Below are positions 5,417 to 42,288 of a DNA stretch of 42,288 bases, piece by piece. Made by a program: the position numbers and the translations under genes. The DNA comes from a virus (taxonomy: Duplodnaviria > Heunggongvirae > Uroviricota > Caudoviricetes): positions 1 through 42,288 of the IMG/VR virus record IMGVR_UViG_2778260993_000007, one strand, 5' to 3'. Each line of letters begins with the position of its first letter. The first letter of the stretch is position 1. Below the pieces are notes generated by a model, which saw only the letters and a program-made list of their open reading frames with translations, searched no databases and was not told where the DNA came from.

Positions 5417-5435
5417 AACTTGTTACCTCGGTCTG

Positions 5436-5512
5436 TTACCGTTGAGGTAATAATTATGCGTATCTGGTTTGGTGTCAATAGATATGAGTTAAAAAAATTA
5501 CCCGTTAGGTAA
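5436..5512. promoter_or_regulatory. Predicted OL operator pair flanking PL
   Basis: Perfect palindromes TTACC-GTTGA-GGTAA (about 5436..5450) and TTACC-CGTTA-GGTAA (about 5498..5512) flank a minus-strand promoter with perfect -35 TTGACA (plus-strand tgtcaa about 5474..5479). Confidence 0.6.
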
Positions 5513-5523
5513 TCGAATAGGCA

Positions 5524-5547
5524 ATAAAAAAGCCGCCATAAGGCGGC
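5524..5547 (-). terminator. Rho-independent terminator after repressor gene
   Basis: Minus-strand stem GCCGCC-TTAT-GGCGGC followed by TTTTTT. Confidence 0.7.
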
Positions 5548-5569
5548 TTACTTACTGAAAAATATGATT

Positions 5570-6154
5570 TTATTGTTTGTTTTTTTCGTTCTGGTTGATG
5601 ACAAATTCAATGTAACTTTCGATCTTTGCCTTCTCTGTTTCAGGTAACAATGCGTAGCGCGAGCGGTCATAGTTGATAGTTGCAGGGTCATGCGGATGAA
5701 TCAGTAGTTCATATCCGTGACGCCCGAATGCAGATGCAACATTCTCCAGGGTGGAAATGGAAACGCTGACCTCATTGTTTAACAGGCGGCTTATTGTCAC
5801 CTGGGCGACGCCGGATGCGCGGTGAAGTTTTCCCTGAGTTGAAAGGTCGCGGCTTTCACTCATCCAGCGTTCCAGGTTGTGAGCTGCCAGCTGACCAATG
5901 TCGCTTGGTCCGACAGGCTGAAAACCTTCCTGAGAAAGCGAGCGATCGATATCAAGCCAGTTACGGGGTTTATTGGCGGCAGCTTCGATTTTTCGCGCAA
6001 CCTGGTCGCCGATAACCTTCTTGCCAAGAGCCCAGCGGTTTACCAGATTTGCCTGAGTTCCAAGTTTTTCTGCCATCCGCGTCTGAACACCATTGAATTC
6101 ACGGTCGATCAAGTCGTTGAGATTTTGCCTGCGGACGTCCTGGATACTTTTCAT
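5570..6154 (-). CDS. Prophage repressor (CI-like), tandem HTH, no S24 autopeptidase domain
   Basis: 194 aa; N-terminal XRE-type HTH (QTRMAEKLGTQANLVNRWALGKK) and a second HTH-like segment; divergent from Cro-like gene with operator repeats between; no Ala-Gly/Ser-Lys peptidase motifs seen. Confidence 0.7.
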   Translation of the reverse strand: MKSIQDVRRQNLNDLIDREFNGVQTRMAEKLGTQANLVNRWALGKKVIGDQVARKIEAAANKPRNWLDIDRSLSQEGFQPVGPSDIGQLAAHNLERWMSESRDLSTQGKLHRASGVAQVTISRLLNNEVSVSISTLENVASAFGRHGYELLIHPHDPATINYDRSRYALLPETEKAKIESYIEFVINQNEKNKQ

Positions 6155-6209
6155 TTTCTGGAAAATCGCCTCATATATGAATCAGTAGATGATTCAATTT
6201 AAAGCAATA

Positions 6210-6283
6210 TTACCCAACAGGTAAATGCACCCCATAGGTAACTATCCTTGATTTTTGTTACCTTATGGGTGAATATTTATTAT
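6210..6283. promoter_or_regulatory. Predicted OR operator triplet and PR promoter
   Basis: TTACC-CAACA-GGTAA (6210..6224), imperfect GCACC-CCATA-GGTAA (6227..6241), imperfect TTACC-TTATG-GGTGA (6258..6272); PR -35 TTGTTA (6255..6260) and -10 TATTAT (6278..6283) ahead of the Cro-like gene. Confidence 0.6.
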
Positions 6284-6308: not shown

Positions 6309-6539
6309 ATGAGCGATAACGGACATTTCGATTTCAAAAAGCACTGGCTTGCACTTACTCCGGATGAGCGTGAAGCCTTCGCACAGGAAGCCGGAACGAC
6401 GAGTCACTATATCCAGACTCACTTAACAGGTAAGCGCAAAATGCCAGGTAAGGTATTGATGAATGGGCTTTTTAAAGCCTGTAAAACAAGACAATGGCTG
6501 CGCTCAAAAGCAGAACTGGCATACTTCTTCTACTCATGA
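6309..6539 (+). CDS. Cro/CII-like HTH regulator
   Basis: 76 aa; first gene of rightward operon; HTH-like segment (TTSHYIQTHLTGKRKMPGK) resembling lambda CII. Confidence 0.55.
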   Translation: MSDNGHFDFKKHWLALTPDEREAFAQEAGTTSHYIQTHLTGKRKMPGKVLMNGLFKACKTRQWLRSKAELAYFFYS

Positions 6540-15575: not shown

Positions 15576-15602
15576 ACCTTAAAAAAATGCCCGGCGAACC
15601 GG
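15576..15602 (-). terminator. Hairpin plus T7 run immediately upstream of moron RBS (terminator or attenuator)
   Basis: Minus-strand GCCCGG-TTCG-CCGGGC followed by ATTTTTTT then AAGGTGAG RBS and ATG. Confidence 0.45.
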
Positions 15603-15693
15603 GCGAACTGGAAGCAATGAGTTATGCCTTCCGTGGCTGTACTGGTTTACAGCATGAAGTCATCGCAATGGCGTCCTGCTGTAAAAAGGGCGG

Positions 15694-15735
15694 TGATAGT
15701 TCTTCAAGGGAAACCATCACCGCCAAGCACCTGGA
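15694..15735 (-). terminator. Terminator downstream of tRNA-Arg
   Basis: Minus-strand 9-bp stem GGCGGTGAT...ATCACCGCC followed by TTTTT. Confidence 0.5.
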
Positions 15736-15767
15736 ACTTCTGGCATCACGGTCCTTAGGCGTGATTC

Positions 15768-15844
15768 TGGCGTGGCATGCAGGATTCGAACCTGCGACCA
15801 ACCGCTTAGAAGGCGATTGCTCTGTCCAACTGAGCTAATGCCAC
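15768..15844 (-). tRNA. tRNA-Arg (anticodon UCU)
   Basis: 77-nt cloverleaf on minus strand: acceptor GTGGCAT/ATGCCAC, D-arm GCTC...GAGC, anticodon loop CTTCTAA, T-arm GCAGGTTCGAATCCTGC, 3' GCCA; resembles but is not identical to E. coli argU. Confidence 0.8.
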
Positions 15845-30892: not shown

Positions 30893-30913
30893 TCAATATT
30901 TATTGGAGTTCTT

Positions 30914-31441
30914 TCAATGGCTGTTTATGGCTTCTAAAGAATCTTCTGCACTTATCGGCAAAGCAATAGCATCCTTGTTAGATGTGCTATTGCTTTCCAG
31001 AACGATGGAAATCCAATCCTCTTGGTTTTTATTAATTGTGCTGACAGCCATGATAGCATTCAAATCGTTTTTATATATTTCTGATCGAATAAGACCTTTC
31101 CTGAATAATTTAGTTAAGCTTTCCGCTATCGACATCGCACGAATGCTAACTTTACTAAGCTCAATGACGTCACTACCTGCGACTTTAGCGTGTTGAGAAA
31201 GAGCCATCAAAGCTATATGCGAAAATGTTTCTTCTTTTGAAAAACCATTACTTAAAGACAGGAGTGATACACTAGCTCCGTATGGGGTGAGCTTATATCC
31301 TGATACATTCAATGCATGCTCTACAAAGATAAGAGCATCAGTTGTAGAAGCATGGATATTGTTACTTTTTTGTTTTTTCGCAATAAATAAAAAAACAAAA
31401 TTAATAATTACGATGCCGACAATGATTAAGAAAACTTCCAT
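30914..31441 (-). CDS. Membrane-anchored hypothetical protein (accessory)
   Basis: 175 aa; N-terminal TM helix MEVFLIIVGIVIINFVFLFIA; AT-rich; promoter, operator and first codons duplicated in inverted orientation at 35151..35200. Confidence 0.6.
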   Translation of the reverse strand: MEVFLIIVGIVIINFVFLFIAKKQKSNNIHASTTDALIFVEHALNVSGYKLTPYGASVSLLSLSNGFSKEETFSHIALMALSQHAKVAGSDVIELSKVSIRAMSIAESLTKLFRKGLIRSEIYKNDLNAIMAVSTINKNQEDWISIVLESNSTSNKDAIALPISAEDSLEAINSH

Positions 31442-31481
31442 TGCTTTTCCTCACAATAACATTACCTTAAAGGTAATATTT
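31432..31481. repeat. Inverted repeat IR-1, left copy
   Basis: About 50 bp (operator, promoter, RBS, ATGGAAGTTTTCT) is the reverse complement of 35151..35200. Confidence 0.7.
31462..31476. promoter_or_regulatory. Operator-like site upstream of membrane protein gene 30914..31441
   Basis: TTACC-TTAAA-GGTAA; part of 50-bp inverted repeat shared with 35151..35200. Confidence 0.5.
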
Positions 31482-31501
31482 TGTGTTAATGTAATCAAGT
31501 G

Positions 31502-31900
31502 TTAAGTGTAAACCTCCTGCTGTTCAGTGGTGATTTTACCCGGCAACACCTTTTTAGCTTTGCGTGGGTTAACTACATGGCCTTTAGTCCAGTAATCGTA
31601 GAGCACATCGTCACACTCTTCCTGATACTGGATTACCTTGTCGCGGATTTCAGGGCGTACTTTGTTTGGACTGATGCTGTTCAACCAAGCTGCCAATTTT
31701 CGTAAAGCCATACAAATCATGGCTTGCACCCCACCGGCAGAAGGTATGGTGATTTCCACCATACCCTTCGAGAAGCGTTGAGAAATCTTCTTATGTTGAG
31801 ATTTCCAGTCTAGCCCCATTCCCTCAACGATAGGTTTCATTGGGGTATACGGTTCACCGTTGTGATTGACAACATAAAGATCTGCGCCGTGGAATGGCAC
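31502..31900 (-). CDS. Putative antirepressor-like protein (P22-antirepressor N-terminal-like domain)
   Basis: 132 aa; segment GEPYTPMKPIVEGMGLDWKSQ...GGVQAM resembles N-terminal domains of phage antirepressors; weak RBS, start uncertain. Confidence 0.45.
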   Translation of the reverse strand: MPFHGADLYVVNHNGEPYTPMKPIVEGMGLDWKSQHKKISQRFSKGMVEITIPSAGGVQAMICMALRKLAAWLNSISPNKVRPEIRDKVIQYQEECDDVLYDYWTKGHVVNPRKAKKVLPGKITTEQQEVYT

Positions 31901-31994
31901 GTTGATAATAGTGACAAATTTGAAACATCGCTGGTTGTAAGCCAGCAGATGCTCGTTATTTTACATCGCGGTACAATTTCTCGCTGGTGGCTCT

Positions 31995-32328
31995 TTTACA
32001 CACCTTAACCAAATACGGTTGATTTTAATATTTCTAAGCGCTTATCATTACCTTTTCGGTAAATTTACATCGCATTCCTCTTGTGCCATAGTAATCGGGC
32101 ACTGGCAAAATCCAGTGCCGGGATTGGTCTCCCGGATTACTACAGAGGCACATATGCCGCATAAGCGGTTTTTTTATGTGTAAAGCGCACCTATTCTATG
32201 GTGGGCTGTGTGGGGGCACCGAAAGGTGCGCCGGGTCCTTTGTAGCCGGTAAGACCAACTCTGCACAGTTCACCACCATCTGATTGGTCTCAGCGGTGGT
32301 GATTAACCTAACTACAAAGGTGATCGCC
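31995..32328. repeat. Inverted repeat IR-2, left copy (antirepressor leader)
   Basis: About 330 bp, roughly 85-90 percent identical to the reverse complement of 34790..35125. Confidence 0.65.
32048..32062. promoter_or_regulatory. Operator-like site in leader of BRO-type antirepressor gene
   Basis: TTACC-TTTTC-GGTAA adjacent to putative -35 TTTACA. Confidence 0.5.
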
Positions 32329-33021
32329 ATGAATACCAAACCTTCCATCTTTTCCTTTGAGTCATCCTGCCAGATCCGTATGTTCATGATTGACGGAGAA
32401 CCTTGGTTTGTCACCAAAGATGTGTGCAATGCTTTGAATATTGATGTTACACAAGCGAGAAAACTTGATAAAAAAGGCTGGAACAAAAAGGGGCTGTATT
32501 CAATACAGACCCCTGGTGGAATACAAGAACTATCCATCGTTTCAGAATCAGGTCTCTACATCCTTATTCTGCGTTGCAAAGAGGCAATGACTGAGGGAAC
32601 GAGAGCATTCAGATTTCTTGAATGGGTTACAGGTGAGGTTCTTCCTCAGATCCGCCGCACCGGAAGTTACATTAAAAACTCGCTCCCGCAGGAAGAACGC
32701 ATAAAGATGGTTGCCGACCAGGTAGCCAACGCCACGGCGTCAGCAGTAATGCAGGCGATGAAGATAGAGAACAAAACCTACAGCGCCCCGCTGAAGCCCG
32801 GCTACCGCAGTTTGATTCACTCGCCGTCTGGTGTTCTCGGCCTGACGGAGAACTCACTGCTGATGAATCTGCTGAACCAGTTACAGGAAGACGGGCACGA
32901 CGTATCGGGCGCGGCGGCGGAGCTGACCACCATGTTCTGCTACATCGTCGGTGTGAGCAAATGCCTGCGTGATATCCAGACGCACGCGGAGTACATCAAC
33001 GACAAGGCAGGGTTCTTCTGA
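32329..33021 (+). CDS. Antirepressor, BRO-N domain plus shared C-terminal domain
   Basis: Start refined to MNTKPSIF (AAGGTGA RBS); BRO-N-like N-terminus (FMIDGEPWFVTKDVCNALN...GEVLPQIRRTGSY); C-terminal about 80 aa identical to C-terminus of 34133..34789. Confidence 0.7.
   Translation: MNTKPSIFSFESSCQIRMFMIDGEPWFVTKDVCNALNIDVTQARKLDKKGWNKKGLYSIQTPGGIQELSIVSESGLYILILRCKEAMTEGTRAFRFLEWVTGEVLPQIRRTGSYIKNSLPQEERIKMVADQVANATASAVMQAMKIENKTYSAPLKPGYRSLIHSPSGVLGLTENSLLMNLLNQLQEDGHDVSGAAAELTTMFCYIVGVSKCLRDIQTHAEYINDKAGFF
32770..33021. repeat. Inverted repeat IR-3, left copy (shared antirepressor C-domain coding region)
   Basis: About 250 bp nearly identical to reverse complement of 34133..34385; the few differences seen are synonymous. 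Confidence 0.7.
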
Positions 33022-33059
33022 CAGAACGGCGGCACAGGGATGTGCAAAACGGAACTATC

Positions 33060-33071
33060 GTGACATGTCAC
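33060..33071. repeat. 12-bp perfect palindrome GTGACATGTCAC (copy 3 of 3)
   Basis: Exact 12-mer between BRO-type antirepressor stop and its terminator. Confidence 0.6.
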
Positions 33072-33096
33072 AGGCCGCTTTCGCGGCCTTGTTTTT
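33072..33096 (+). terminator. Terminator after BRO-type antirepressor gene
   Basis: AGGCCGC-TTTC-GCGGCCT followed by TGTTTTT. Confidence 0.65.
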
Positions 33097-33256
33097 AACG
33101 AATGCCACCGCCGCCCGGGCTGGAATCCGCAGAACGCCCACCGCAGCGGGAGCCGTCAGCGGCAGTATCGCTGTCGTGCTGACAACGACCGGCAAAGGCC
33201 TGAGTTGAAGCTACCAGAGACAACAAAACGAACAGTGCAGCAAATGCTTTTTTCAT
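33095..33256 (-). CDS. Possible small secreted peptide
   Basis: Signal-peptide-like N-terminus MKKAFAALFVLLSLVASTQAFA; but Gly/Ser-rich remainder overlaps a GC-rich terminator region; may be non-coding. Confidence 0.2.
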   Translation of the reverse strand: MKKAFAALFVLLSLVASTQAFAGRCQHDSDTAADGSRCGGRSADSSPGGGGIR

Positions 33257-33325
33257 TGTGAAATTTCCATCTATAAGCCACCTCAATGTGGCGTCAATGA
33301 GTGTAGTACTGACTTTTGTTTCGTC

Positions 33326-33351
33326 CACAAAAAAGCCCGCGCTGCGGGCTT
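33326..33351 (-). terminator. Terminator after gene 33355..33987
   Basis: Minus-strand AGCCCGC-AGC-GCGGGCT followed by TTTTTTG directly after stop codon. Confidence 0.7.
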
Positions 33352-33354
33352 CTG

Positions 33355-33987
33355 TTAATGCAGTTTATCTTTGCTTATAACCAGTAGTCTGTGGGTATGC
33401 ACATCTTTATCACTGCCCCAACAGAAATCAGCCCACTGGCTATAGAAATCATCCCATGATGTCATGAAGCTAAGAGGTCTATCTTCTTCAGAGCCATCTG
33501 AAACGTATACATTATATCCTGGGGTGTTTATAGCCCAAGAAATCATTCTTTCCCAGAATCTTCTCCCATCGATTGTTTGTTGCTCATCAGATACAACGAT
33601 CGCATATTGCTCTAGGAAGAACTGAAAAAAAATCTGAGGCAAACCATGAACAGCACGGTCATGAATAACATTAGGCGTACGCCATACCATGATCTGCGTA
33701 CATGTTCTTTTGGCTTCGACGATATCTTCCCGAAAGATTAACTTAACCGCATACACCGTTTCTGGAGTATCGCTGGTAGTAATCATTCTGTAATGATCGC
33801 CATTACAAGATTTTACAAGGCGATAACCATAAGGTGTTGTGAATCCCGGAAGAACGAAATCAACCACACCTTTCGCTAAGTAGCTTTCGGTGTGACTAGT
33901 GTTCTTCTCAGACATGTTCAGTTTTCTATCGAAATCTGCTTCTGGGATAATGTATGGCATCGCTTTTCTTGTTGTATTTGTTCTCAT
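33355..33987 (-). CDS. Hypothetical protein at centre of antirepressor island
   Basis: 210 aa; own operator-like site upstream (about 34047..34061) and strong terminator directly after stop; no recognised domain. Confidence 0.55.
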   Translation of the reverse strand: MRTNTTRKAMPYIIPEADFDRKLNMSEKNTSHTESYLAKGVVDFVLPGFTTPYGYRLVKSCNGDHYRMITTSDTPETVYAVKLIFREDIVEAKRTCTQIMVWRTPNVIHDRAVHGLPQIFFQFFLEQYAIVVSDEQQTIDGRRFWERMISWAINTPGYNVYVSDGSEEDRPLSFMTSWDDFYSQWADFCWGSDKDVHTHRLLVISKDKLH

Positions 33988-34046
33988 TTCGTCCTCCCAT
34001 GTTTGGCTACAGGACGCGTTTTGAAGGGAAGATTAAAAATGCTTTC

Positions 34047-34061
34047 TTACCCTTGAGGTAA
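34047..34061. promoter_or_regulatory. Operator-like site upstream of gene 33355..33987
   Basis: TTACC-CTTGA-GGTAA in the 145-bp gap between AntA-type gene stop and next start. Confidence 0.5.
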
Positions 34062-34132
34062 TAGTACGCTATTCACCCCCAGTCTGCAATCTGTACAGAA
34101 TTATTTAAAGGCACGTCCCTGTGCCGCCGCCG

Positions 34133-34385
34133 TCAGAAGAACCCTGCCTTGTCGTTGATGTATTCCGCGTGCGTCTGGATATCACGCAGGCATTTGCTCA
34201 CACCAACGATGTAGCAAAACATGGTTGTCAGCTCCGCCGCCGCGCCCGATACATCGTGCCCGTCTTCCTGCAACTGGTTCAGCAAATTCATCAGCAGTGA
34301 GTTCTCCGTCAGGCCGAGAACACCAGACGGCGAATGAATCAGGCTACGGTAGCCGGGCTTCAGTGGGGCGCTGTATTCTTTTTTG
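34133..34385. repeat. Inverted repeat IR-3, right copy
   Basis: See left copy. Confidence 0.7.
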
Positions 34386-34789
34386 TCTTCCAGCTTGATC
34401 GCCTCCATAATGGCGGGCATGAAGCCTGACAAGACCTTCTCCACTTTTGTTTCTTGTTGTCTTAAACGTTTCTCGCATTCAATGAAGTAGCGTCGCACCT
34501 GGCGACCTTTTTCGTTACGCTCGACCATCGCCAGCTCTTTGGCTGTATCAAGGGTGAGGTGGTACTCTTTGCGGTTGTGGCCGCCTCTACCAGATGTTTG
34601 CTTTCCCAAATTGGAAAGCAAAATATAGTCTTGATTTTCAATGAATTCGTATTCTGATATGCGATTTGTAATCCATGCTGCAAACACCTTTTTAACACCT
34701 AAAAAAGCGTGCAGATCGCGGGCATTACAAAGTAGGGCTGTTTCGTTAGATATAGTGCCGTTGAATACGGGGATGAGTTGAGCGTTCAT
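34133..34789 (-). CDS. Antirepressor, AntA/AntB-type N-terminal domain plus shared C-terminal domain
   Basis: 218 aa; AntA-like N-terminus ([34 protein letters not shown]); C-terminal domain identical in protein sequence to that of 32329..33021. Confidence 0.7.
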
Positions 34790-35125
34790 GATGGCGTCTC
34801 CACTTAGCGAATTACATCACCACCGCTGAGACCAATCAGATGGTGGTGAACTGAACGGAGTTGGTCTTACCGGCCTAAGTGGTACCGGCGTCCTTTCGGA
34901 CCCCCATTCAGCCCACCATAATTCTGGCATGACTGTGCTATACGCATAAAAAAACCACGTCTGGCGTGGTATGCGCCACTTAGTAATCCGGGAGACCAAT
35001 CCCGGCACTGGATTTTGCCAGTGCCCGATTACTATGGCACAAGAGGAGTGCAATGTAAATTTACCGCAAAGGTAATGATAAACGCGAAGAAATATTAAAA
35101 TCAACCGTATTTGGTTGATTGCGTT
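34790..35125. repeat. Inverted repeat IR-2, right copy (antirepressor leader)
   Basis: See left copy; ends at the AntA-type gene start codon. Confidence 0.65.
35061..35075. promoter_or_regulatory. Operator-like site in leader of AntA-type antirepressor gene
   Basis: TTACC-GCAAA-GGTAA; inverted counterpart of the site at 32048. Confidence 0.5.
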
Positions 35126-35150
35126 TAACGCTTGATCACCTGAAAGCAAG

Positions 35151-35200
35151 ATATTACCTTTAAGGTAATGTTATTGTGAGGAAAAGCAATGGAAGTTTTC
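35151..35200. repeat. Inverted repeat IR-1, right copy
   Basis: Reverse complement of 31432..31481 by direct comparison. Confidence 0.7.
35154..35168. promoter_or_regulatory. Operator-like site upstream of membrane/zinc-ribbon gene 35189
   Basis: TTACC-TTTAA-GGTAA, 21 bp before start codon. Confidence 0.5.
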
Positions 35201-35917
35201 TGGATAGTTGTTGGTGTGGTTGCGGTGATTATTTACGTTATCAACCAGAACAAGACTAAGATCTCTGATCGTACGGTCGTTAATTATAACAAAACGATAA
35301 AGACCGAAGATGGGGAGATAACGATTAATCGTACACAGGTGATAGAACACACCTCTACTCAGTTTCAAAAAACTGGAGGTAATGCGCCTAATATTTCCGC
35401 ACCTCCTGCTTATGATAGTGCGGTAATCCAGACATATTATAAACAGCAGGAGTTAGCAAAAGAGAGGCAACTGATTCAGCCAAAGCCGTTTACAGCTGAG
35501 CTTCCACCTGGAGTGTCAATGCGTCCGGCATATCATGGAAGATTCCCTGGTGATGACATATCGTCTCAGTCATCTAAAAAAGCACCTCAGGCAGTATCAG
35601 AGCCAGCAAGAATACCTTCTGTATCGCCGCCAAAAGAAGAATCAGCTAACAGAGTTTCAAGTGGTAGCAAGCAGTGCTTGCGATGCAGAATAAACCTACC
35701 ATATGAAAAATTCAGGAAATCGTCAAAAAATCCAGATGGATTGACTAAGTGGTGTGCAAGGTGTCTCGATGGCCCAAAGAATACACGCCATATGAAGTGG
35801 TGCCCAATTTGTAATGTCCGCAGAAAACGAACAAGCTTTTACCCTAATAATCAAAATGCGGATGGCTTAATGGCATGGTGCAAAACGTGCTGGGACGAGC
35901 ACAAAGCGAAACGATAG
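35189..35917 (+). CDS. Membrane-anchored protein with tandem C-terminal zinc-ribbon repeats
   Basis: 242 aa; N-terminal TM helix MEVFWIVVGVVAVIIYVI; two about 35-aa repeats each with CxxC...DGL..WCxxC. Confidence 0.6.
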   Translation: MEVFWIVVGVVAVIIYVINQNKTKISDRTVVNYNKTIKTEDGEITINRTQVIEHTSTQFQKTGGNAPNISAPPAYDSAVIQTYYKQQELAKERQLIQPKPFTAELPPGVSMRPAYHGRFPGDDISSQSSKKAPQAVSEPARIPSVSPPKEESANRVSSGSKQCLRCRINLPYEKFRKSSKNPDGLTKWCARCLDGPKNTRHMKWCPICNVRRKRTSFYPNNQNADGLMAWCKTCWDEHKAKR

Positions 35918-35939
35918 GCCGCTCTTGCGGCCTTTAAAT

Positions 35940-36197
35940 TTACCGGGTTTGTTTTCGTAATTGTTCGGCACAATAGTCGAGATGTGTTTGCAGATCCCGC
36001 ATAGACATCTGTGAGCTGGTGACGTAGTTAATCAGTGCAGTCAGTTCGGCAAGTGGGCCATCGACATTAAATCCATCCTTATCGAGCTCCCGGAGTAATT
36101 TCATCAAGTGCGATCCCTCCACCAGTGATCTGACGCCTCCCGGCGTGTGAATCCTTTCGGTAAATCCGTCTTCCAGTGGATAGTGATACTGCTGCAT
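35940..36197 (-). CDS. Small protein homologous to the antirepressor C-terminal domain (candidate SOS-induced antirepressor)
   Basis: About 85 aa from ATG with GGAGAAG RBS (track ORF extends to 36215); aligns with the shared antirepressor C-domain (TPGGVRSLVEGSHLMKLLRELDKDGFNVDGPLAELT...MRDLQTHLDY); LexA box immediately upstream. Confidence 0.6.
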   Translation of the reverse strand: MQQYHYPLEDGFTERIHTPGGVRSLVEGSHLMKLLRELDKDGFNVDGPLAELTALINYVTSSQMSMRDLQTHLDYCAEQLRKQTR

Positions 36198-36218
36198 CTT
36201 ATCTTCTCCATGCAATAA

Positions 36219-36234
36219 CTGTATAAATATACAG
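36219..36234. promoter_or_regulatory. LexA (SOS) box
   Basis: aaCTGTataaatatACAGta: CTGT-N8-ACAG with AT-rich spacer matching the enterobacterial LexA consensus TACTGTATATATATACAGTA at most positions; about 22 bp upstream of start of minus-strand gene 35940..36197. Confidence 0.65.
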
Positions 36235-36273
36235 TATCAAATAATTTATTTGCTATCCAGCACGTTTTGCGAA

Positions 36274-36288
36274 TCACCTGAAAGGTAA
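36274..36288. promoter_or_regulatory. Operator-like site TCACC-TGAAA-GGTAA upstream of tail fiber gene
   Basis: 9/10 match; in divergent intergenic region between LexA-box gene and tail fiber gene. Confidence 0.45.
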
Positions 36289-36392
36289 TATCTGTTCGTA
36301 TTTATGGGTTGTCTATCCATATATGGTTTTTCAGGTAATAGAATAACCGGATATGCGGCGCAACGGGTGCTGCGACTATCTGGAGATTTAAC

Positions 36393-38927
36393 ATGACGGT
36401 CTCAACCGAAGTTGACCACAACGAATACACCGGTAACGGTGTTACAACGACATTCCCTTATACCTTCAGGATTTTCCAGAAATCTGATTTAGTAGTGCAG
36501 GTTGTTGACCTGAACGAGAACATCACAGAGCTGATTCTTGATACTGATTACATAGTCACTGGTGCGGGAGGGTATAACGGCGGCAATGTAATTCTGTCGA
36601 AGGCGTTGGTTAACGGTTATCAGATTTCTATATCAAGAGAGCTACCGGTTACGCAGGATACCGATCTGCGCAACCAGGGTAAGTTCTTCGCTGAGGTGCA
36701 TGAAGACGCATTCGATAAACTGACGATGCTGATACAGCAGGTTAGAAGTTGGTTCAGGTTGGCTCTGCGTAAACCATCATTTATTGCTAATTATTATGAT
36801 GCTTTGAACAATTATATTCGTAACCTGAGAGATCCCAGATTTCCGCAGGATGCGGCAACAAAAAATTACGTGGATACGCTTGCTGGTAGCAATCTAAGCA
36901 AAACTCTTCGCGTTCCTGAATCAATACCTTCCTTACCTGATGCTATTGAAAGAGCAAACAAGATGGTTGCTTTTGATAATGATGGTAATCCATTTGTCGT
37001 ATTACCACCATCTGGATCTGCCTCAGACGTTCTAATTGAATTAGCTAAACCTGATGGGTATAAGTTAATTGGTGGATTAGAAAACAGATTATATATATAT
37101 GATATAAGCGCACTAGACGGTGAGCGGAATAGTGATCAGCTTAATGCTATATTTTATAAGTATAAAGATACACCAATAAAAATATACTCAAGCGTGCCAC
37201 TAACTTTCACCATAGATAAAGAAACACATCTATATGGTGATTTTGATTTGAGTAATTGTACTTTCCACTTAACAAACGGAAAGGTTGTGTATAAAGATGA
37301 AAGGGATGATGATAGTTATATAAAGGAAGTTAATATATCAACATACCCATTGAACGAATTAACCTCAGTTTTTTCTTGTGTTGAGGATTTAACAGGGTGG
37401 GGTAATTCGCTCGTCAAAATAATAAGTCCAACAGAGGTTGATCTCTATAGGTTGCTTGGTGGTGTATTCACCCCAAGATATAAAGGTGAAGTGAACTTTA
37501 TGACTAAGTCAGGGGAATTGGCTTACAGTCTTAAAAATACTTACAACGACCCCGTAACTTGTACGTTATTTAAGCTACCAACTAAGCGTAATAAAATTGT
37601 ATTGCCGCGTTTCACTGGTCAATTTTCACGCTATGCTTTTGATATCCAACGTTCTTTAGTTGATGTTGAGGTTGTTTACTTTAATGACATGGGGATGACA
37701 GCTACAGATTCTAATATTTTTGGTAGCTCTACCACCTACGGAGTTAACTGGAGATTAACGAGTGCGGGTATTACGCAGACGGATAATAATTCTCGTTATA
37801 CCGTAGCTATGGAGTACACCCTTAAACATACTTTTATCGGCTGCGAAGTGGGTAAGGGGTGGAGGTCTATTGACGGCAACTATTGCAGGGATGTGGTTGT
37901 GAGAGACAGTAATCTTGATAGCTTCCACATGCACTATGGGTGCTCAAAGATTCTTGTTGATAATTGCCGGATACCTGGAGGCGTCATGGTTGGTACTGGG
38001 GCGTTCGACGAGGCCACACAGATCATCAATTCTCACATAGGGCCGTTTGGAGTACGTACGGATTACGGTGAACATAAAGGTGATTTCATAGTCCGTGGGG
38101 GATCCGTTCGTATTCCAGAGGGTTCATCCGGTTTGGTGGATATGATTTTGTGTCGTCCAGACAATGTTATCGCGTCTGGGAATCCTGTTCAGCCGCGCAC
38201 TTTACATCTTCCGAAGAATATAATTGTACAGACGAATATATACTGGCCTTCTGAGGTAACACTCAATATTTTATCATTTAAAAATAACTTTAAAACACAG
38301 CCATCACCTTTGCGTGACTTTAAAATGCCGTCATTGATAGATTTTACTGGTAGCACTTTTAATGGTAAAGCCGCAAGATTTGAGTTGGCAATTTCATATC
38401 ATGATGCATCTACAAGAGATATTCCTGTAATTAAATTGACTCCAGCTAAATCAACTGGATGTAAAGTTGTATGTTATGTTGGATACCTGGATGAGTATGC
38501 ATCATGCCTTTATGGTCTTGAGAGCAATATGGATATTGCATATATGAATATCACATCAGGAATGAATAGGAGTTACATCAAGCATGATGGTGGTGTATTA
38601 CGTAGGTTTGTAGGCTATTCTGGTGGAAACACATATATGCTTGGCAGTGTTTATTTTGACAAAATGGCCATAGATTGGGATGTGAGTAACAACCTTGTTT
38701 CAGGATTTATGTCAGTGTCTGACTGTCTTATAGATGGTTCGAGAGCTAAGGGATCATCTTCATCTAAGCCGATAGTAAATACGTATGTACATAGGTCGGC
38801 AAATAATATATGTCATGAGATAGTGGCAACTGACTCAAGGGATGTTGTCGATAAAAAATATGCCCTTTGCAGTAGAGAGGGAACCGCAGGGAACTTCTCA
38901 ACAGGTGAGATACCTATAACATTTTAA
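36393..38927 (+). CDS. Tail fiber / tailspike protein (T7 gp17-like N-terminal adaptor, divergent C-terminal receptor-binding region)
   Basis: 844 aa; N-terminus (EVDHNEYTGNGVTTTFPYTF) resembles podovirus tail-fiber N-terminal domain; C-terminal two-thirds AT-rich. Confidence 0.75.
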   Translation: MTVSTEVDHNEYTGNGVTTTFPYTFRIFQKSDLVVQVVDLNENITELILDTDYIVTGAGGYNGGNVILSKALVNGYQISISRELPVTQDTDLRNQGKFFAEVHEDAFDKLTMLIQQVRSWFRLALRKPSFIANYYDALNNYIRNLRDPRFPQDAATKNYVDTLAGSNLSKTLRVPESIPSLPDAIERANKMVAFDNDGNPFVVLPPSGSASDVLIELAKPDGYKLIGGLENRLYIYDISALDGERNSDQLNAIFYKYKDTPIKIYSSVPLTFTIDKETHLYGDFDLSNCTFHLTNGKVVYKDERDDDSYIKEVNISTYPLNELTSVFSCVEDLTGWGNSLVKIISPTEVDLYRLLGGVFTPRYKGEVNFMTKSGELAYSLKNTYNDPVTCTLFKLPTKRNKIVLPRFTGQFSRYAFDIQRSLVDVEVVYFNDMGMTATDSNIFGSSTTYGVNWRLTSAGITQTDNNSRYTVAMEYTLKHTFIGCEVGKGWRSIDGNYCRDVVVRDSNLDSFHMHYGCSKILVDNCRIPGGVMVGTGAFDEATQIINSHIGPFGVRTDYGEHKGDFIVRGGSVRIPEGSSGLVDMILCRPDNVIASGNPVQPRTLHLPKNIIVQTNIYWPSEVTLNILSFKNNFKTQPSPLRDFKMPSLIDFTGSTFNGKAARFELAISYHDASTRDIPVIKLTPAKSTGCKVVCYVGYLDEYASCLYGLESNMDIAYMNITSGMNRSYIKHDGGVLRRFVGYSGGNTYMLGSVYFDKMAIDWDVSNNLVSGFMSVSDCLIDGSRAKGSSSSKPIVNTYVHRSANNICHEIVATDSRDVVDKKYALCSREGTAGNFSTGEIPITF

Positions 38928-40998: not shown

Positions 40999-41147
40999 CA
41001 TGGCATTTTTCATGGTACTGATTTCCGGTGACGGTATGTAAAACGGTACGGGAAAAATTGAGATTTGGAAAAATGTTATCACTCAATTAGTTATGGTTAT
41101 CGTAAATAATTGAGTGGGAATGATTTTAATCCCTGCACTATGAATGA

Positions 41148-41217: not shown

Positions 41218-41757
41218 TTAATTAAACCAGCTGTCCGATTTGTTCTCTTCTGCTTTGCCCACGCTTTTCATCAGATCGCGACCGCCTTCAGTCATATTTC
41301 TGTTGGCGTCAGCTTCAGATTGCACCACATCGGTTTGCGCAGCTTTGTGCTTCAGTTCCTGATCGATAAATTCGTTTTCTCGCTTAACGCGGGCTTCTTC
41401 TTTTGCCAGCGCCAGTTTTTGTTTCTGAATCTCTAAGCTGCGTAGCTCATCTTCATAACTTTGATCGCGTTTTTTGTCCGCAGAGGCTTCGGCGTCCAGT
41501 TTATCCTGACGAGCTTTCTTATTTGCCGCTGCCGTTGCCGCTCTTTTGTTAGCGGCGGCCTGGGCATTTGCGCGACGTTGCTTCTCTTGCTGGATTTCCC
41601 TGTTGCGCTCCGCGACCCATTCGTCATGCTGCCTTTGCTCTTCATTTTTACCTTGCTGTTCAGCTTCTGCTACAGCAGAGAGTTGATCCTGCAATGATGA
41701 GGCGATAGCCGGATAGCTTAAGGAGGCCAAGATGGCGCAAAGAAAAACTTTCTTCAT
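41218..41757 (-). CDS. Secreted coiled-coil protein (signal peptide); host or moron gene
   Basis: 179 aa; signal peptide MKKVFLCAILASLSYPAIA; Gln/Glu/Lys/Ala-rich coiled-coil body; convergent with lysis cassette across a bidirectional terminator. Confidence 0.6.
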   Translation of the reverse strand: MKKVFLCAILASLSYPAIASSLQDQLSAVAEAEQQGKNEEQRQHDEWVAERNREIQQEKQRRANAQAAANKRAATAAANKKARQDKLDAEASADKKRDQSYEDELRSLEIQKQKLALAKEEARVKRENEFIDQELKHKAAQTDVVQSEADANRNMTEGGRDLMKSVGKAEENKSDSWFN

Positions 41758-41772
41758 GACTCCTCCTGATTA

Positions 41773-42288
41773 TTAGCTCTTTTCAGGACATTTAGTATTT
41801 GGCTGAATACGCGTTTCGTTATACGTTGTGGTAATAACAACGGCTAAACCTGTCGTAAACTGGCACTCTTTACCCACCTGGGTAGAGGTATACACTTTGG
41901 TGCCTTCCTTATATGTTAAAGAAACACCTTCCACTAAGGTTTTATCATTCACCATAGAACCCACTGCCGCGCCTACAGCTCCGCCGCCAACTGCCCCTGC
42001 CGTCGTTCCGGAATTGCTGCCAGAACCGACGTTGTGGCCGATAACACCGCCAGCGACTGCGCCAATAAGCGCGCCGAAGGCTTGTGCGTTCCGTTTATTT
42101 TGGGAGTTGTCTACGGCAACTTTTGCGGGAAGAATGGAAATAATATTAACGGTTTTAGTTTCTTGTTTGGTATTCAGTTGATCGGTTTGATAAACATCGG
42201 CGGCATGATCGTCAGCATTTGACTGGCATCCTGCCAGAGTGAATGACGCTAACATTGCCACAGGCAGAAGACATTTTTTAAATTTCAT
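41773..42288 (-). CDS. Lipoprotein with glycine-zipper motif (host or moron gene)
   Basis: 171 aa; lipobox LAGC; Gly-rich segment (GALIGAVAGGVIGHNVGSG...GAVGGGAVGAAVGS) typical of glycine-zipper outer-membrane lipoproteins. Confidence 0.6.
   Translation of the reverse strand: MKFKKCLLPVAMLASFTLAGCQSNADDHAADVYQTDQLNTKQETKTVNIISILPAKVAVDNSQNKRNAQAFGALIGAVAGGVIGHNVGSGSNSGTTAGAVGGGAVGAAVGSMVNDKTLVEGVSLTYKEGTKVYTSTQVGKECQFTTGLAVVITTTYNETRIQPNTKCPEKS

Follow-up and report, generated by a model that had tools for sequence, protein, structure and literature searches.

Probable control by antirepression in a phiV10-like Escherichia coli prophage: a repressor without an S24 domain, a LexA-boxed ant gene and two Ant-domain fusions behind C4/isrK RNA leaders

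The stretch of DNA analysed here (the window, 42,288 nucleotides) is, by sequence comparison, a phiV10/epsilon15-like (Uetakevirus) podovirus prophage of E. coli. Its gene order is that of phiV10 throughout, and the region around rep has 98% DNA identity to phiV10 (also to related Uetakevirus, epsilon15-like podoviruses). The window begins within the integrase gene, and the attR core ATTGAGTGGGAATGATT at 41109..41125 matches the published attP of phiV10, epsilon15 and ZX5 (PMC9782041). The host flank that follows the attR core (41218-42288) carries a DUF5384 gene and a Gly-zipper/TraT-like lipoprotein gene; six other E. coli genomes with related prophages show the same flank. This type of prophage is very common in E. 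coli. A tRNA-Arg gene (anticodon TCT; Rfam 70 bits, also called by ARAGORN) lies between the terminase and portal genes at 15768-15844 on the minus strand, opposite to the structural genes and overlapping an ORF at 15587..15838 (plus strand).

The lysogeny repressor gene, rep, occupies 5570..6154 on the minus strand (194 aa, ATG at 6154). It diverges from a plus-strand gene at 6309..6539 for a 76-aa Cro-like regulator (phrog_35, E 5.6e-13), which is homologous to phiV10p41 and epsilon15 gp39, and so stands in the CI position. An intrinsic terminator is found just downstream of rep (5530..5549, minus strand), and phiV10 has an annotated terminator at the equivalent place. phiV10p40 and the vB_EcoP_ZX5 repressor (ORF21) have the same sequence as Rep (100% identity); overexpression of the ZX5 repressor abolished free phage (PMC9782041).

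The initial annotation held that the protein in the CI position lacks an S24 autocleavage domain, and the analyses of Rep agreed. The HMM search against S24 and HTH profiles that it had proposed placed HTH_3 (E 1.2e-9) on residues 106-147 and a second, weaker match, to a YdaS/Cro-like HTH (E 3e-4, under the gathering score), on residues 21-61, and Pfam returned no match to Peptidase_S24 at E<=10. A precomputed S24 domain (PF00717) was present in 0 of 86 Rep homologues drawn from a collection of 5.8 billion proteins. The AlphaFold2 model of Rep, built on 28 homologues, is all helix, with 11 helices and no strands at a mean pLDDT of 75, and the PDB folds closest to it are the Rep-Ant complex 5D50 and the Rep structure 5D4Z, not the C-terminal domains of LexA or CI. 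The C-terminal half of Rep is thus helical and HTH_3-like rather than an S24 C-terminal domain with a Ser-Lys dyad and Ala-Gly site, and on these grounds autocleavage of the S24/CI-like kind was rejected. An N-terminal XRE-type HTH and a second HTH-like segment had also been described. Two HTH regions are indeed present, but by Pfam score the one that is clearly of XRE type is the C-terminal one.

Rep is 41.8% identical, over 98% coverage, to the product of the SPC32H gene annotated 'rep'. Among PDB chains it matches 5D50_A (E 4e-42) and, with residues 89-190, 5D4Z_A (E 4e-20), which is the Rep C-terminal domain in isolation. Compared with SPC32H Rep, its N-terminal domain is 54% and its C-terminal domain 37% identical. 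By homology, the N-terminal HTH (about residues 1-70) is predicted to be the DNA-binding domain, and the C-terminal HTH_3-like domain (about 92-190), through its relation to 5D4Z, the oligomerisation domain. The latter sits in the place of an S24 domain and need not be a second DNA reader (PMC9638917). Lacking S24, Rep would have no means of self-cleavage, and its inactivation probably falls to LexA-controlled Ant.

The candidate operator of this system, the palindrome ATTACC-N5-GGTAAT, occurs at 17 sites in the window when up to two mismatches are allowed, against 1.4 expected, and almost all of these are intergenic (17-mer starts at 5435, 5497, 6209, 6594, 8516, 8578, 13006, 13024, 16165, 31461, 32047, 34046, 35060, 35153, 36273, 39082 and 39544). 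The palindromes adjoin promoter-like sites, including those of both RNA-gated cassettes described below and of neighbouring accessory genes. The leftward early promoter region (5435..5513; -35 TTGACA at 5478..5473 and -10 AATTAT at 5455..5450) is flanked by Rep-type palindromes at 5435..5451 and 5497..5513, and the epsilon15 record marks three 'repressor' sites at the equivalent place. Between rep and the Cro-like gene, the control region at 6209..6283 holds the palindrome ATTACCCAACAGGTAAA (6209..6225), GGTAAC/GTTACC half-sites and a rightward promoter-like site (6255..6283). Another copy lies between ant and the tailspike gene at 36273..36289, is a 'repressor' site in the epsilon15 annotation, and has both hexamer arms nearly invariant in an alignment of eight phages. 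That Rep binds ATTACC-N5-GGTAAT is an annotation-level prediction taken from the epsilon15 record, in which the identical 17-mer is labelled a 'repressor' binding site. The motif is kept though the two Reps are only 42% identical, which suggests an operator specificity common to nominally different phages.

Four antirepressor-type genes had been reported elsewhere in the prophage and paired with the repressor. The coordinates of all four ORFs proved correct; the genes are not, however, equivalent partners of Rep, being one cognate Ant, two C4-gated fusions and one truncated fragment.

The small antirepressor gene, ant, lies at 35940..36197 on the minus strand and encodes an 85-aa orthologue of SPC32H Ant that matches phrog_450 over its full length, no Pfam family being found for it. 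The protein is 88% identical to the product of SPC32H 'ant' (KC911856) and 97.6% identical to its phiV10/ZX5 counterpart, and matches chain 5D50_E at E 5.5e-47. The gene diverges from the tailspike gene, outside the immunity region, in the same position as in SPC32H. A LexA (SOS) box, AACTGTATAAATATACAGTA (36217..36236), begins 20 nt ahead of the ATG of ant. It contains a perfect CTGT-N8-ACAG and agrees with the E. coli LexA consensus at 18 of 20 positions, which makes it the sole site of at least 15/20 in the 42-kb window; the next best site scores 14/20. Moreover, the box before ant is kept in eight Uetakevirus phages, with hosts in Escherichia, Salmonella, Enterobacter and Klebsiella, while its flanks drift. 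The other three antirepressor-type genes have only poor CTGT-N8-ACAG sites with one mismatch, none of them reaching 15/20, and a consensus sigma-70 scan returned no promoter overlapping the ant box. That the small Ant is the cognate, SOS-controlled partner of Rep among the four flagged genes is well supported. In nearly all Escherichia and Salmonella phage and genome records examined here the gene is labelled 'hypothetical protein', an annotation gap given its closeness to a crystallised antirepressor.

The truncated gene at 31502..31900 (minus strand, GTG start) encodes a 132-aa N-terminal fragment of a P22/CUS-3-type Ant, with P22_AR_N (E 9.7e-45) as its only Pfam domain. It has 97% DNA identity to the first 400 bp of CUS-3 ant, which encodes 307 aa, and its product covers positions 13-136 of the 317 in phrog_524. 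In place of a full-length P22-type Ant, only the equivalents of about residues 8-140 of the 307-aa CUS-3 protein are present, and a PHROG search found no Ant-like domain in the product. This gene is probably a truncated remnant of a P22-type ant.

The two remaining genes are fusions. The gene at 32329..33021 (plus strand) encodes a 230-aa protein with an N-terminal Bro-N domain (E 1.8e-13) and an Ant-like domain at residues 147-228, and the gene at 34789..34133 (minus strand) encodes a 218-aa protein with AntA (E 4.2e-26) followed by an Ant-like domain at residues 135-216. In a PHROG search the C-terminal ~82 residues of both fusions fell into phrog_450, the family of the small Ant. The two C-terminal domains do not differ from one another and share 43% identity with the small Ant, which they match at E 1e-16 (Bro-N fusion) and E 6e-17 (AntA fusion). 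The first search for Ant homologues was saturated by close stand-alone homologues, and the fused forms were seen through a profile search of a representative library. That search, of 1.84 billion representatives, gave the Ant-like domain family only 61 members, in which the domain either stands alone at ~85-95 aa or forms the C-terminus behind AntA, Bro-N, Phage_pRha or ORF6N.

Each fusion gene is the last element of a cassette. Cassette 1 (32047..33021, plus strand) consists of a Rep-type palindrome (32047..32063), a promoter-like site (32064..32092), isrK (32099..32175), C4 antisense RNA (32194..32280) and the Bro-N fusion gene. Cassette 2 (34133..35076, minus strand) is its mirror image, with the palindrome at 35060..35076, the promoter-like site at 35059..35031, isrK at 35024..34948, C4 at 34923..34839 and the AntA fusion gene. 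The RNA leaders occupy 32086-32328 (plus strand) and 34790-35037 (minus strand). The isrK model scores 74.7 and 67.7 bits in the two leaders (Rfam gathering score 50) and the C4 model 74.0 and 61.2 bits (gathering score 45); the upstream a1b1 model reaches 39.9 bits, slightly under its gathering score of 46.7. An ORF at 34817..35149 (minus strand, 110 aa) was rejected as a gene because the isrK/C4 leader of cassette 2 lies within it. The cassettes are imperfect inverted copies of each other (arms 32007-33022 and 34132-35116, 87-96% identical); the arms carry the promoter, RNA leader and Ant-like domain, and the N-terminal domains have been swapped (Bro-N against AntA). A gene for a 210-aa protein (33355..33987, phrog_1349) is flanked by the inverted arms. 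The duplication could allow inversion or recombination.

Pairing between C4 and its targets was assessed by inspection of loops and targets and by arm-to-arm covariation. In cassette 1 (left arm) the second C4 loop, CCTTTGTAG, is complementary to CTACAAAGG in the RBS region, and in cassette 2 (right arm) the second loop, CCACTTAGG, is complementary to CTAAGTGG in the RBS region. An AGACCAA/TTGGTCT pairing is common to both cassettes. Loop and RBS target vary between the cassettes, with complementarity retained within each, a compensatory change that is reminiscent of P1/P7 heteroimmunity. Whole-duplex energies calculated with RNAduplex for C4 and its targets were no different from those for shuffled targets. 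C4 is overlapped in either arm by a short ORF (35 and 37 codons), and the encoded peptides are not conserved in sequence. An isrK/C4 leader also precedes the 'anti-repressor' genes of ZX5 and of Enterobacter phage Tyrion, and SPC32H is without one. Overall, ZX5 ORF4 (a Bro-N 'anti-repressor') shares 81% identity with the Bro-N fusion of the window, rising to 100% in the Ant-like domain, and its overexpression lowered lysogens about 1000-fold (PMC9782041). Most likely, the two fusions are extra, SOS-independent antirepressors of the P1 immI type, each kept untranslated by its own C4 RNA.

We favour, at a probability of roughly 0.85, a Uetakevirus Rep/Ant switch in which a Rep without S24 is countered by a LexA-controlled Ant that disassembles the Rep tetramer, and to which two SOS-independent C4-gated fusions and one remnant have been added. 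Rep would hold the early promoters, and apparently many others, shut, probably through the ATTACC-N5-GGTAAT operators, and in the lysogen host LexA on the box at 36217..36236 would keep ant silent. DNA damage would activate RecA and bring about the self-cleavage of LexA, so that Ant is made; Ant would then bind Rep and break the DNA-binding tetramer into dimers, and the prophage would be induced. Hence, RecA would act on LexA and not on Rep. The domain content of Rep, its homology and that of Ant to the two chains of the SPC32H complex, the synteny and the conserved LexA box are demonstrated here. Since both SPC32H partners are present and a near-consensus LexA box precedes ant, induction by antirepression rather than by RecA-mediated cleavage, as the initial annotation had concluded, is well supported.

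Ant is said to dock on the C-terminal domains of Rep in the work of Kim et al. of 2016. Recognition of the window's Rep by the small Ant is extrapolated from SPC32H, and in that C-terminal domain the two Reps are only 37% identical. Ant-Rep binding, tetramer disassembly and an uncleaved Rep would be expected by homology with SPC32H, whose Rep binds DNA as a tetramer that is broken when an Ant tetramer binds two Rep dimers (PMC9638917, citing Kim et al. 2016 PNAS, PMC4983836). A review (PMC7380047, citing Kim and Ryu 2013 among others) describes several S. enterica prophages in which Ant is made once LexA has cleaved itself and the repressor is inactivated by protein contact, uncleaved; LexA-controlled antirepressor logic is likewise established for the Gifsy prophages (PMC3121763). 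SOS need not be the only or the main trigger, because ZX5 lysogens release phage spontaneously, at about 1e7 PFU/mL (PMC9782041).

The SPC32H Rep/Ant system (Kim and Ryu 2013, J Virol; Kim et al. 2016, PNAS; PDB 5D4Z and 5D50) belongs to the same genus and has the same two-domain, S24-less repressor (42% identity at full length), an Ant of 85-86 aa (88%), the same position of ant and a LexA box before it, a box that is mutated in the natural mutant SPC32N. It differs in Rep sequence type, most in the C-terminal domain, and has the small ant only at the locus, whereas the window adds a ~5-kb mosaic region, two fusions with isrK/C4 leaders and the P22-type fragment. phiV10 (Perry et al. 2009) and ZX5 (Li et al. 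2022, PMC9782041) share Rep (100%), the small Ant (97.6%), the attP core and the integration module with the window. Unlike the window, phiV10 carries a single Bro-N gene without an Ant-like domain, and ZX5 carries one fusion cassette, with isrK and C4 first, in place of two inverted cassettes that differ in N-terminal domain and in C4 specificity. In the ZX5 paper the small ant is listed as hypothetical and the LexA box goes unnoted (PMC9782041).

The leaders resemble P1/P7 immI (c4-icd-ant; PMC12197685) and Gifsy-1 isrK-orf45-anrP (PMC4825925), both in having isrK and C4 above Rfam gathering scores and in having C4 loops complementary to upstream and RBS sites of an antirepressor-type gene. 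In Gifsy-1, orf45 overlaps STnc1160; the 35-37-codon ORFs of the window likewise overlap C4. In contrast to immI and Gifsy-1, the antirepressor-type genes of the window join Bro-N or AntA to a domain like SPC32H Ant, and their promoters adjoin a Rep-type palindrome. Gifsy-1/2/3 and Tum of coliphage 186 (Lemire et al. 2011, PMC3121763) follow the same logic, with an uncleavable repressor and a small LexA-controlled antirepressor encoded outside the immunity region. Contact between repressor and antirepressor in Gifsy most likely involves dimers, whereas the window's Rep is predicted to be a two-HTH, tetramer-forming protein. Finally, Rep is like lambda CI/LexA in its position divergent from cro, its role in lysogeny and its N-terminal HTH; it differs in lacking S24, the beta-rich C-terminal fold and the chemistry for self-cleavage, and in that RecA would act indirectly, through LexA.

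More tentatively, the prophage may have used the SPC32H Ant fold as a portable module for targeting repressors, deployed three times against one Rep: once LexA-gated, with SOS as input, and twice as fusions behind hetero-specific C4/isrK gates, which would be SOS-independent and used at infection or under stress. If so, a podovirus has joined the antirepression logics of the Gifsy/186 type and the P1 immI type on one repressor.

It is also conceivable, though we think it unlikely, that the C4-gated fusions act in trans on the repressors of co-resident or superinfecting prophages and not on the resident Rep, as Fels-1 FsoA acts on Gifsy-2. The Ant-like domain of the fusions is only 43% identical to the cognate Ant, as would suit such a role. 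Moreover, Rep-type palindromes abut the fusion promoters, so that, if Rep binds them, the cassettes would lie downstream of Rep derepression and resemble fsoA; FsoA is under Fels-1 repressor control, plays no role in Fels-1 induction and acts on another prophage (PMC3121763). Against this, ZX5 ORF4 altered the lysis-lysogeny outcome of its own phage, whose Rep is identical to that of the window (PMC9782041). The exact AntA fusion protein of the window is, furthermore, listed in 2826 index blocks of public assemblies, and in 6 of the 6 places displayed, of those 2826 blocks, its gene adjoins the small ant at the same host site in a Uetakevirus prophage, which points to co-inheritance with the phage type.

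The pairing of Rep with four antirepressor-type genes in the initial annotation implied that all four are redundant, equivalent inactivators of Rep. The Ant fold does recur in three of the four, as the small Ant and the two fusions, and overexpression of a near-identical Bro-N fusion pushed ZX5 towards lysis (PMC9782041). Nonetheless we regard equivalence as improbable: a LexA box precedes ant only, the C4/isrK RNA leaders of the fusions imply a different control logic, the P22_AR_N gene covers only the start of a CUS-3-type Ant (132 residues out of about 307) and lacks the Ant-like domain, and SPC32H and epsilon15 have the small ant alone. Inactivation of Rep by non-S24 proteolysis, through a partner protease or cryptic RecA-stimulated cleavage, is a formal possibility of very low probability, with nothing in the sequence for it. 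Rep has neither an S24 nor a beta-rich domain, no ImmA/IrrE-type protease gene was found adjoining rep, and for several S. enterica prophages, including the case of Kim and Ryu 2013, a review gives LexA-controlled Ant synthesis and not repressor cleavage as the way of induction (PMC7380047).

The Rep/Ant SOS switch that we favour for the window is the published Uetakevirus mechanism and is not new. What novelty is left is modest and lies in the use of the Ant fold three times under two control systems, LexA and C4/isrK antisense RNA, an arrangement of which the literature searched gave no description. A very common type of E. coli prophage would thereby be coupled to the SOS response by way of LexA and Ant and not by self-cleavage of its repressor, which is useful for predicting inducing antibiotics or stresses and for annotation. 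The Ant-domain fusions behind C4/isrK RNAs hint at added inputs for induction or anti-immunity.

Between the last virion gene and ant lies a highly mosaic accessory region (30900-36400). In a comparison with 5426 complete E. coli genomes, no more than 87% of its length was matched at any single place, and pieces of it are present in 1297 of these genomes, including the N-termini of Stx-phage 'anti-repressors'. A 90-nt inverted repeat (31416-31505 and 35125-35214, 87% identical) holds a perfect Rep-type palindrome and also spans the 5' ends of two unrelated accessory genes, 30914..31441 on the minus strand and 35189..35917 on the plus strand; the product of the latter has matches to endonuclease VII and to Lar-like Zn-fingers. 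The operator-bearing segments of this repeat look like module junctions within the mosaic region.
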